From IMG/VR virus record IMGVR_UViG_3300021255_000152, positions 32,001 to 96,000 of that record: a stretch of DNA of 64,000 nt; one strand, given 5' to 3'. Position 1 is the stretch's first letter. The number at the start of each line of letters is the position of its first letter. Position numbers and translations under genes: made by a program. This document shows positions 50,481 through 50,551 of the stretch, piece after piece. The notes beneath the pieces are model-generated. The model did no database searches and was not told the DNA's origin. It worked only from the letters and a program-made list of their open reading frames with translations. This DNA is from a virus. Lineage: Duplodnaviria > Caudoviricetes.

Positions 50481-50551
50481 AGGGGTATCGTTCAACGGTA
50501 GGACAGTGGTCTTCAACACCATATATGTGGGTTCGAATCCTACTACCCCTG
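50481..50551 (+). tRNA. tRNA-Trp with UCA anticodon (UGA decoder)
   Basis: Acceptor AGGGGTA/TACCCCT with G73; D-arm GTTC/GGAC; anticodon stem GTGGT/ACCAT with loop CT-TCA-AC; short variable loop; T-arm GTGGG-TTCGAAT-CCTAC. CCA not encoded. Confidence 0.93.

Follow-up and report, generated by a model that had tools for sequence, protein, structure and literature searches.

A phage-encoded tRNA(UCA) with a tryptophan-type body as the predicted opal suppressor of a TGA-recoded phage

The stretch of viral DNA analyzed here (the window, 64,000 nucleotides in length) carries an isolated tRNA gene with the anticodon UCA. We conclude, with a probability that we put at roughly 85%, that this tRNA is an opal suppressor of the phage, which would be charged with tryptophan by the host and would decode UGA in the late genes in competition with RF2. 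The tRNA itself, its tryptophan-type body, the division of the codons into two gene blocks, the occurrence of TGA in place of TGG and the conserved linkage of the gene to recoding are direct observations. That this tRNA implements the recoding had been proposed in a sequence-only reading of the window, and four results now speak for it: the 192 in-frame TGA codons of the late genes restore a normal tryptophan frequency, TGA replaces TGG at an invariant tryptophan of RuvC, no other tRNA among the 24 of the record has a UCA anticodon, and the gene is found at the same locus in every TGA-recoded relative with sufficient flanking sequence and in none of the standard-code or TAG-recoded relatives.

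RESULTS

Two gene blocks with different use of TGA

The window covers bases 32001 to 96000 of a linear IMG/VR virus record of 138,028 bp with 34% G+C, the completeness of which is estimated at 79% (CheckV). Its sequence makes the virus a probable phage of gut or rumen Firmicutes, for which we also infer a host family; the DNA polymerase III alpha subunit is closest to proteins of SPbeta-like Bacillus and Enterococcus phages (about 39% identity). The tRNA gene, referred to here as tRNA(UCA), is located exactly where two gene blocks converge. To its left lie genes for very large structural proteins, baseplate and tail-fibre domains, a YcaO/radical-SAM (RiPP-like) cluster and an endolysin, and to its right, on the minus strand, those for dUTPase, NrdD/NrdG, guanylate kinase and Pol III alpha. 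The other 23 tRNAs of the record, including a tRNA-Trp(CCA), form a minus-strand array together with a tmRNA at 124.8 to 138 kb of the record.

On the basis of open reading frame (ORF) coverage and codon counts, the window is divided into a TGA-recoded part (positions 1 to 52436), containing structural, RiPP-like, lysis, glycosyltransferase family 8 (GT8) and RuvC genes, and a nearly TGA-free block of replication and nucleotide-metabolism genes (52682 to 64000, minus strand; delimited also by domain matches) that reads the same under both codes. In the late block (1 to 84.5 kb of the genome), changing from code 11 to code 4 raises ORF coverage from 75.7% to 96.9%; in the early block (84.5 to 124.5 kb), coverage is 95.5% with either code. 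The 27,281 late codons include 192 TGA and 200 TGG, and the 15,562 early codons include 15 TGA and 213 TGG. Tryptophan would make up 0.73% of late-gene residues if encoded by TGG alone and 1.44% if encoded by TGG and TGA, compared with 1.37% in early genes. Early genes end in TAA (49), TAG (13) or TGA (1), the lone TGA being probably an internal codon of a recoded gene. Since TGA is avoided in the early genes both as a sense codon and as a stop, these genes would be read in the same way before and after any switch of the code.

Recoding is thus concentrated in the structural and lysis genes, and the early genes use the standard code. One protein of 2720 amino acids contains 26 in-frame TGA codons. 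The endolysin gene (46891 to 49368, plus strand), recognized from its translation and from matches to GH25 and to CW_7 repeats, contains three and is thus a late gene that would depend on UGA decoding; its domains are evidence for a cell-walled host. We found no support for a weak-termination context after the in-frame TGA codons, with C at +4 in 6% of the cases compared with 14% after TGG (p = 0.09).

TGA stands in place of tryptophan codons in RuvC

The gene for a RuvC-like resolvase (51933 to 52436, minus strand; identified by its domain and translation) is the last TGA-bearing gene of the minus-strand block and has four in-frame TGA codons. Its comparison among relatives provides a test of the meaning of TGA that is free of the gene calls of others. 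Position 107 is TGA in the window and in 17 of the 20 relatives of the TGA clade, with TGG in the other three, and it is TGG in all 25 standard-code relatives and in 34 of 35 relatives of the TAG clade (59 of 60 together). At the remaining three TGA positions, the aligned residues are Trp, Tyr, Phe or His. This exchange of TGA and TGG at position 107, together with the alignment to aromatic residues or His elsewhere, indicates that TGA stands for tryptophan in this phage. PDB homologues of the lysin and of GT8 were also tried as a test of the TGA-encoded residues and proved too distant, and the loci of relatives were used instead.

The tRNA(UCA) gene

In the 64-kb window, ARAGORN reports a single tRNA, with the anticodon tca at position 33. 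Its label is SeC when code 11 is set and Trp(tca) with code 4, the former because ARAGORN gives this name to a UCA anticodon under the bacterial code. Rfam model RF00005 matches positions 50481 to 50551 over its full length (model positions 1 to 71) with 62.1 bits (gathering score 29; E = 4.8e-11). The intron-less gene (50481 to 50552, plus strand) is 72 nt long and has a variable loop of 4 nt and a 7/5 acceptor/T-stem geometry. Its acceptor stem, AGGGGUA/UACCCCU, starts with the pairs A1-U72, G2-C71 and G3-C70, and G73 is the discriminator base (position 50551). No CCA is encoded, since G73 is followed by C-U-A. The anticodon stem, GUGGU/ACCAU, includes a G27-U43 wobble pair, and a second wobble pair, U12-G23, is present in the D stem. 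The canonical cloverleaf with its UCA anticodon, the A1-U72 pair, G73 and AGGGG acceptor (seen also in the ARAGORN drawing), the G27-U43 wobble and the missing CCA had all been noted from the sequence alone and were recovered here.

The cloverleaf is maintained in 10 distinct orthologous sequences, 12 of its 21 stem pairs having changed in a compensatory manner, and G73 is kept in all 11 phage tRNA(UCA) variants. Judged by ARAGORN, Rfam and this covariation, tRNA(UCA) is evidently a genuine gene, beyond a chance match. Bacterial tRNA-Sec is about 90 to 100 nt long, has a long variable arm and an 8/5 acceptor/T-stem geometry, and goes with selA/selB and SECIS. This identity was rejected for the gene at 50481 to 50552 on account of its length, 4-nt variable loop and 7/5 geometry, and RF00005 is the best-scoring member of its Rfam clan. 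A score as Sec or as a pseudo-tRNA had been named beforehand as what would speak against a suppressor; the SeC label comes from the anticodon only, and the Rfam score and intact cloverleaf argue against a pseudo-tRNA. In a sensitive Rfam scan, no ribozyme family matched within 170 nt on either side of the gene. A theta or HDV-like ribozyme beside tRNA(UCA) was set aside on this result, as far as such ribozymes are represented in Rfam.

A tRNA-Trp body close to that of Lachnospiraceae

We compared tRNA(UCA) with bacterial tRNAs by means of a search pattern composed of the 3' strand of the D stem, the anticodon arm (with C or U at position 34) and the T arm. It matched at least 120 bacterial loci, nearly all of them in Bacillota, and every match listed is a tRNA-Trp(CCA). 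With the anticodon masked, tRNA(UCA) is most similar, among the matches listed, to the tRNA-Trp(CCA) of two uncultured Lachnospiraceae MAGs (0.87 identity), followed by Cys (0.75) and Gln (0.72) as the next isotypes among 1063 bacterial tRNAs from the loci of these matches, a comparison that favours Trp in that its tRNA-Trp set was retrieved by a pattern from tRNA(UCA) itself. The tRNA-Trp genes of Anaeroplasmataceae reach 83% identity among the matches listed. A Firmicutes tRNA-Trp-like body had been proposed beforehand, which agrees with the 87% identity to Lachnospiraceae tRNA-Trp(CCA) versus 75% to Cys among these matches.

The closest Lachnospiraceae genes among the matches listed have the GUGGU/ACCAU stem with G27-U43 in common with tRNA(UCA) and likewise lack an encoded CCA, and the acceptor start A1-U72, G2-C71, G3-C70 is identical in the aligned Bacillota tRNA-Trp genes. 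Compared with these closest genes listed, tRNA(UCA) has U34 for C34, C38 for A38 and C9 for A9, a compensated U6-A67 pair, the U12-G23 wobble and changes in loop bases. By its anticodon it is a derivative of tRNA-Trp and not a standard tRNA-Trp: of C34-C35-A36, C35 and A36 are kept and C34 is changed to U34.

In the phage collection, the best matches to tRNA(UCA) that were inspected are all tRNA-Trp(CCA). Typing of the isotype by nearest neighbour among phage tRNAs was indecisive, with the phage's own tRNA-Trp(CCA) ahead of Asn by a small margin (0.71 versus 0.69). At an identity of only 0.71, tRNA(UCA) is not a recent copy of the phage's own tRNA-Trp(CCA). The bodies of its orthologues in other phages are 62 to 82% identical to the window copy, which is nearer to bacterial tRNA-Trp than to any of them. 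The product of the adjacent gene, a small heat-shock protein (sHSP), is 83 to 93% identical in most relatives and 44 to 45% in the most divergent subgroup. Since the tRNA bodies diverge far more than the adjacent sHSP, the tRNA cassette may have been turned over or replaced while its locus stayed fixed.

tRNA(UCA) lies in a probable transcription unit with host-type signals

A sigma-70/sigma-A-type promoter-like site, TTGACT-18-TATAAT (49818 to 49847, plus strand; 11 of 12 matches), is located in the gap after a putative holin gene and is the best plus-strand site within 46.6 to 52.6 kb. The promoter scan as a whole was not enriched over shuffled sequences (32 sites found, 30.5 expected), and the support for this promoter is therefore its conservation: equivalent sites with 10 to 12 of 12 matches are present in 9 of 10 related loci, and several of these sites immediately follow a terminator-like hairpin and its T run. 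We regard it as the probable start of the transcription unit that bears the tRNA. A sigma-A promoter upstream of the tRNA had indeed been predicted earlier; it lies about 630 nt away, with two small ORFs in between.

The first gene of the unit is an ORF of 61 amino acids (49869 to 50054, plus strand; taken from the ORF list, with its frame seen in relatives), and the second encodes the sHSP (50082 to 50453, plus strand; 123 amino acids), assigned by its alpha-crystallin domain. Neither contains TGA. Sequence matches of the sHSP are weak (Pfam HSP20, E = 0.0048; PHROG 432 "Hsp20," E = 6.4e-4), and the top Foldseek PDB matches of its AlphaFold2 model (pLDDT 79.7) are all small heat-shock proteins. 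Mimicry of a translation factor by this protein was considered and rejected, its predicted structure being an ordinary alpha-crystallin fold.

Between the sHSP stop codon and the tRNA, a small hairpin (50455 to 50474, plus strand) with an 8-bp stem and a 4-nt loop appears in the sequence and in both the minimum free energy and centroid folds. This hairpin had been noted before, and all relatives have one at the equivalent place, with arms that differ yet remain complementary and so covary. It probably protects the 3' end of the upstream mRNA or serves as its leaky terminator, or else belongs to the 5' leader of the tRNA. The GT8 gene (50570 to 51253, plus strand; three in-frame TGA codons in its code 4 translation) starts 18 nt past tRNA(UCA), behind a GAGG ribosome-binding site, and its product matches Pfam Glyco_transf_8 (E = 2.7e-7) and glycogenin in the PDB (E = 4e-13). 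A sequence scan revealed a bidirectional intrinsic-terminator-like hairpin (51261 to 51292) with a 13-bp stem and T runs on both sides, which closes both the tRNA unit and the convergent minus-strand block.

Linkage to recoding among relatives

The RuvC relatives in IMG/VR fall into three groups, namely, the TGA-recoded clade, standard-code phages and TAG-recoded phages. Nineteen loci of the TGA clade carry tRNA(UCA) at the syntenic site; every TGA-recoded relative with enough flanking sequence has it there, and it is absent from the standard-code and TAG-clade loci examined. The order of promoter, small ORF, sHSP gene, hairpin and tRNA(UCA) is conserved in the TGA clade. All of five TGA-clade records have a single copy of the sHSP gene, which none of five standard-code or TAG relatives has, and tRNA(UCA) follows 30 to 40 nt after it at each of the 21 sHSP loci with enough flank. 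A scan of IMG/VR for the sHSP-tRNA pair returned 23 loci, all of the same clade and none beyond it. Because these loci form one clade, the association of the tRNA unit with recoding may reflect a single evolutionary event or acquisition.

Standard ARAGORN and Rfam searches detected no suppressor in most TGA-clade relatives, including a record rated 100% complete. With its intron search enabled, ARAGORN found the syntenic tRNA, split by about 180 to 320 nt in the anticodon loop, and such intron-bearing orthologues of tRNA(UCA) are present at 19 of 21 related loci. The insertion site lies between U34 and C35, with the 5' exon ending in U34 and the insert in G, and removal of the insert gave a canonical tRNA(UCA) of 71 to 75 nt in 17 of 17 cases. 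In local E-value scans against RF00028 (group I intron), the inserts of two loci scored 40 bits (E = 6e-9) and 22.7 bits (E = 9e-4), both below the gathering score of 50, and Rfam at the gathering threshold found nothing in seven related loci. We assign the inserts to group I-like introns on account of the Rfam matches below threshold, the agreement with splice-site rules and the fact that their removal restores the tRNA exactly, and their splicing is predicted. A limited literature search for a description of intron-split suppressor tRNAs yielded only a general remark, which mentions intron sequences in the tRNAs of recoded jumbo phages (PMC13037316).

Intron-less forms of tRNA(UCA) occur only in the window, in its 97% relative L001 and in the lineage L010. 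The L010 tRNA is 95 nt long and has an encoded CCA and a long variable arm with U-CCA in its loop. The window gene is contiguous, with no group I intron splitting it, and is the simplest of these forms, having neither an intron nor an extra arm.

Charging and 3'-end maturation

Two ways of charging had been envisaged, either by a host tryptophanyl-tRNA synthetase (TrpRS) that tolerates U34 or with the help of a TrpRS or an RF2 antagonist encoded by the phage outside the window, and a search of the rest of the genome for trpS, prfA and a CCA-adding enzyme had been suggested. Domain models PF00579 (tRNA-synt_1b), PF00472 (RF-1) and PF01743 (CCA-adding) had no match in the 138-kb record, 79% complete as it is, and did match control genomes. 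The second alternative thus found no backing in the record, and the first is favoured: with no trpS, release-factor or CCA-enzyme gene in the record, host TrpRS is the likely charging enzyme. The identity elements of Escherichia coli TrpRS are G73, the first three acceptor pairs and the anticodon (PMC2965240). According to the same article, which cites Zhang et al. (2004), the TrpRS of Bacillus subtilis is reported to work with the tRNA-Trp of that species in a UCA form (PMC2965240), and tolerance of U34 by a Firmicutes TrpRS therefore has an experimental precedent. Of the 24 phage tRNAs, no more than two or three have an encoded CCA, which implies the use of a host CCA-adding enzyme, and its absence from tRNA(UCA) is the rule for this phage and nothing special.

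DISCUSSION

Proposed mechanism

We propose that the unit would be transcribed, probably by the host RNA polymerase, from the near-consensus sigma-A-type promoter into one transcript carrying the 61-aa ORF, the sHSP gene, tRNA(UCA) and the GT8 gene. Host RNase P would cut the 5' side of the tRNA, where the hairpin would either shield the end of the upstream mRNA or serve as a leaky terminator, and a host pathway would trim the 3' side, to which the host CCA-adding enzyme would add CCA. Charging with tryptophan by host TrpRS could proceed via G73, the acceptor end (A1-U72/G2-C71/G3-C70) and C35-A36. tRNA(UCA) would then compete with host RF2 at UGA, and about 190 in-frame UGA codons in the structural, RiPP-like, lysis and RuvC genes would be read as tryptophan. 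Late proteins would be completed only after tRNA(UCA) has accumulated, and the replication genes, which have almost no UGA as sense codon or stop, would be translatable before and after the switch.

Several observations run against this scheme. Bacterial TrpRS relies on C34 as a major identity element, and with U34 in its place charging may be inefficient. Up to 26 consecutive read-throughs would be hard to achieve with the tRNA alone against an active RF2; the 138-kb record (79% complete, such that accessory genes may be missing) yielded no factor directed against RF2, and the base that follows in-frame TGA is not biased towards weak termination. The link of the tRNA to recoding comes from a single clade and may go back to one event. 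The gene is also located at the 3' end of the late region, such that its early expression hinges on the predicted promoter. Efficiency is the weak point of a mechanism that relies on the tRNA alone.

This weak point leads to the alternative that tRNA(UCA) is necessary and not sufficient, with a further factor that lowers RF2 activity or raises charging; it would be encoded on the missing 21% or so of the genome or among the many unannotated genes, and participation of the co-transcribed 61-aa ORF or sHSP in the switch is a possibility. We consider such a factor possible, if on balance unlikely. The number of in-frame TGA codons per ORF (up to 26), the lack of a weak-termination context bias after TGA and the 79% completeness of the record would all be consistent with it, as would the constant co-location of the 61-aa ORF and the sHSP gene with the tRNA, the confinement of the sHSP to the TGA clade and the presence of RF1 and TrpRS genes beside the suppressor in the Jade phages (bioRxiv 10.1101/2021.08.26.457843). 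However, RF-1 and TrpRS domains were not found in the record, the fold of the sHSP is that of an ordinary alpha-crystallin with no link to translation factors, the linkage of the unit may stem from one inherited event, and no such factor has been identified for most of the code-4 phages in the literature (bioRxiv 10.1101/2021.08.26.457843). Another reading, to which we give little credence, makes tRNA(UCA) the core of a dedicated code-switch operon formed by the sigma-A promoter, the 61-aa ORF, the sHSP gene, the hairpin and the tRNA, in which the sHSP as a holdase, and perhaps the tmRNA, buffers the proteotoxicity of the switch, in a cassette that is rapidly exchanged and remodelled and of which the window copy is a recent, host-derived, intron-less replacement. 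If this were true, the phage would buffer the side effects of its own code switch, that is, truncated late proteins before it and C-terminally extended host proteins after it, and would exchange the cassette in intron-split, intron-less or decoy-CCA-arm forms.

The remaining alternatives concern the host, the amino acid and the activity of the tRNA. Code 4 would suit the entire phage genome, in which TGA stops are all but absent, and Anaeroplasmataceae tRNA-Trp genes are 83% identical to tRNA(UCA) among the matches listed, as might be expected if the host itself used code 4 and tRNA(UCA) merely supplemented its tRNA pool like the other 23 phage tRNAs. Yet about 50 kb of replication genes with almost no TGA and normal TGG would be unexpected in such a host, the endolysin bears GH25 and CW_7 cell-wall domains, and the closest tRNA-Trp among the matches listed belongs to Lachnospiraceae, which use the standard genetic code. 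Moreover, although the search pattern permitted U34, its bacterial matches (at least 120) all have C34 where listed, and the close phage relatives are standard-code or TAG-recoded; we regard a code-4 host as very unlikely. It is harder still to believe that tRNA(UCA) is an inactive relic, with UGA being read by a near-cognate tRNA-Trp(CCA) or through modified host factors. While the phage does possess its own tRNA-Trp(CCA), and only 35% of the code-4 phage genomes yielded a suppressor tRNA (bioRxiv 10.1101/2021.08.26.457843), the cloverleaf is intact at 62 bits, covariation among the orthologues shows purifying selection, position, promoter and hairpin are conserved, and the seemingly missing suppressors of the relatives are present in intron-split form. 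Least credible of all is the insertion of another amino acid at UGA, be it selenocysteine, glycine (code 25), cysteine or arginine. It would fit the SeC label given by ARAGORN under the bacterial code and the rank of Cys as second-best isotype by body similarity among the matches listed, but not the 72-nt length, 7/5 geometry, 4-nt variable loop and best clan score for RF00005, which are not those of a tRNA-Sec, nor G73 and the Trp-type acceptor stem. Nor would it account for the exchange of TGA with TGG at an invariant tryptophan and with aromatic residues elsewhere, or for a late-gene tryptophan deficit that TGA fills exactly. We therefore retain the reading of tRNA(UCA) as a host-charged suppressor that inserts tryptophan.

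Significance and comparison with known systems

A code switch of this type has already been described in phages, and the present case adds a clear further example, with no change to the mechanism. As such, it is a well-resolved addition to the phages predicted to switch an infected standard-code cell to reading UGA as tryptophan, with a full codon map, non-circular evidence that TGA means tryptophan and a probable host family. The unit is defined, has a host-type promoter, and could be cloned and tested directly. The comparison of relatives is the more useful result: at one and the same locus, the suppressor is plain, intron-split or equipped with a long arm and a CCA loop. These three forms help to explain why surveys have found a suppressor in no more than about one in three code-4 phage genomes, and the intron-less copy in the window provides a natural control on whether the intron delays the code switch.

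The closest counterparts are phages described in a preprint by Borges et al., which reportedly appeared later in Nat Microbiol in 2022. Clades of TGA-recoded phages that infect Firmicutes are among those described. For code-4 phages, this study reported suppressor tRNAs and a concentration of recoding in structural and lysis genes; close standard-code relatives hardly used TGA as a stop, the codes of relatives differed, and charging of the phage suppressor tRNA by host TrpRS was proposed (bioRxiv 10.1101/2021.08.26.457843). Suppressors were detected in only 35% of the code-4 genomes, and non-canonical tRNAs were suspected (bioRxiv 10.1101/2021.08.26.457843). The Agate clade in particular resembles the phage studied here in being a group of large phages with predicted Firmicutes hosts and animal-gut sources, in reading TGA as tryptophan in structural and lysis genes, in having standard-code replication genes with TGA nearly absent as a stop, and in showing a mixture of standard, TGA and TAG codes among relatives. 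As in phages of this kind, a tRNA(UCA) is present, no trpS or release-factor gene was found in the record, and charging by host TrpRS is the mechanism proposed. Our phage is probably Agate-like, being matched to the clade by description. In the preprint we did not find an sHSP-hairpin-tRNA unit with a sigma-A-type promoter, a Lachnospiraceae-like body or intron-split orthologues of the suppressor.

The "code change module" of the Jade phages consists of a suppressor tRNA, TrpRS and RF1 upstream of the lysis cassette (bioRxiv 10.1101/2021.08.26.457843). It resembles the present unit in being a standard-code unit with a suppressor tRNA that adjoins the lysis cassette. In contrast, the unit described here contains neither TrpRS nor RF1, has the 61-aa ORF, the sHSP and GT8 as partners of the tRNA, and lies downstream of the lysin and holin genes. 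Theta ribozymes, minimal HDV-like ribozymes found beside phage suppressor tRNAs, also serve the 3'-end processing of tRNAs without CCA (bioRxiv 10.1101/2023.06.13.544163), whereas here no ribozyme match was found within 170 nt and merely 18 nt separate tRNA(UCA) from the next start codon. The inserts of the orthologues, placed after U34, resemble the group I introns that split the tRNA-Leu(UAA) of cyanobacteria and plastids and the tRNA-Ile of Azoarcus; unlike these split genes, the window gene is contiguous, and the relatives' inserts score below the Rfam gathering score of 50, with their splicing predicted.

The tRNA as such has parallels in nature and in the laboratory. In the tRNA-Trp(UCA) of Mycoplasma and Spiroplasma, in the UCA form of E. 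coli trpT and in the UCA variant of B. subtilis tRNA-Trp, C34 of a tRNA-Trp body has likewise been changed to U34, UGA (and probably also UGG) is read as tryptophan, and the bacterial TrpRS accepts the tRNA, this reading and charging being predicted for the phage tRNA. The latter additionally differs from the bacterial tRNA-Trp(CCA) genes compared here in having C38 instead of A38. Unlike the natural and laboratory forms of tRNA-Trp(UCA), it is encoded by a virus and would act against a host that probably uses the standard code.

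TGA use differs from gene to gene

The TGA/TGG ratio differed strongly between genes. At two places in the window, several ORFs that appear separate under the standard bacterial code (code 11) fused in one frame when TGA was read as Trp (code 4), yielding products of 2006 aa at positions 8975-14995 (5 TGA versus 21 TGG) and 2614 aa at positions 17797-25641 (4 TGA versus 37 TGG), and an 834-aa gene at positions 25963-28467 contained no TGA. Recoding was heavy in most minus-strand genes of a RiPP-like cluster spread over both strands of positions 38042-46734, one of which reached the maximum of 7 TGA with 0 TGG. 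In this cluster, YcaO is encoded on the plus strand; the minus-strand genes comprise three radical-SAM proteins, of which two have SPASM domains, together with a U32 peptidase-like protein and small ORFs. Outside the window, two minus-strand genes (genome positions 116405-117034 and 118590-119111) with 4 and 7 in-frame TGA codons lie in the early block of replication genes, which is otherwise TGA-free.

Recoding among relatives and a phage tmRNA

The more distant RuvC relatives (loci L044-L080) were called TAG-recoded because their ORF coverage increases when TAG is treated as sense, and one such phage carries two tRNA(CUA) genes side by side (L072:1230-1379). One phage group thus includes standard, TGA-recoded, and TAG-recoded members. 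The sHSP gene (window positions 50082-50453), which was not found in the standard-code or TAG-recoded relatives, shares 83 to 93% identity with most relatives, whereas at the same loci identity is just 64 to 70% for RuvC and 62 to 82% for the adjoining tRNA body.

The phage also encodes a tmRNA on the minus strand outside the window (genome positions 132743-133055; locus L257:743-1055), scoring 74.3 bits against the Rfam tmRNA model RF00023 (gathering score, 47), with a tag peptide of 25 residues predicted by ARAGORN. A relative, G002, likewise has a tmRNA, and its tag is similar. In a cell whose ribosomes are reading through UGA stops, ribosome rescue could be relevant.

tRNA(UCA) and its orthologues

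The anticodon loop of the window's tRNA(UCA) (positions 50512-50518) reads CUUCAAC, placing C at position 38, a feature found in 8 of the 11 different tRNA(UCA) sequences from phages, whereas every bacterial tRNA-Trp(CCA) gene aligned has A38. The tRNA(UCA) of locus L010 (L010:11620-11714; G003:58415-58506), 95 nt long and without an intron, has a G1-C72 pair, an encoded CCA, and a long variable arm. Since the 7-nt loop of this arm includes U-CCA, the arm resembles an additional anticodon arm of the normal Trp type.

Among loci L002-L021 and L259-L279, an insert of about 180 to 320 nt after U34 splits the orthologous tRNA(UCA) in 19 of 21 related loci (for example, L021:11211-11496 and L005:11653-11921; in whole records, G002:101637-101911 and G004:50252-50537). 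The insert is a predicted group I-like intron; the Rfam group I model RF00028 gave 40 and 22.7 bits, each under the gathering score. Split tRNA(UCA) genes escape tRNA finders run at default settings, and intron splitting may explain why some suppressors seem to be "missing" from code-4 phages.

Separately, a 771-nt intron is predicted in the anticodon loop of tRNA-Leu(UAA) of the relative G004 (positions 110146-111002, minus strand). This is the classical site at which group I introns insert.
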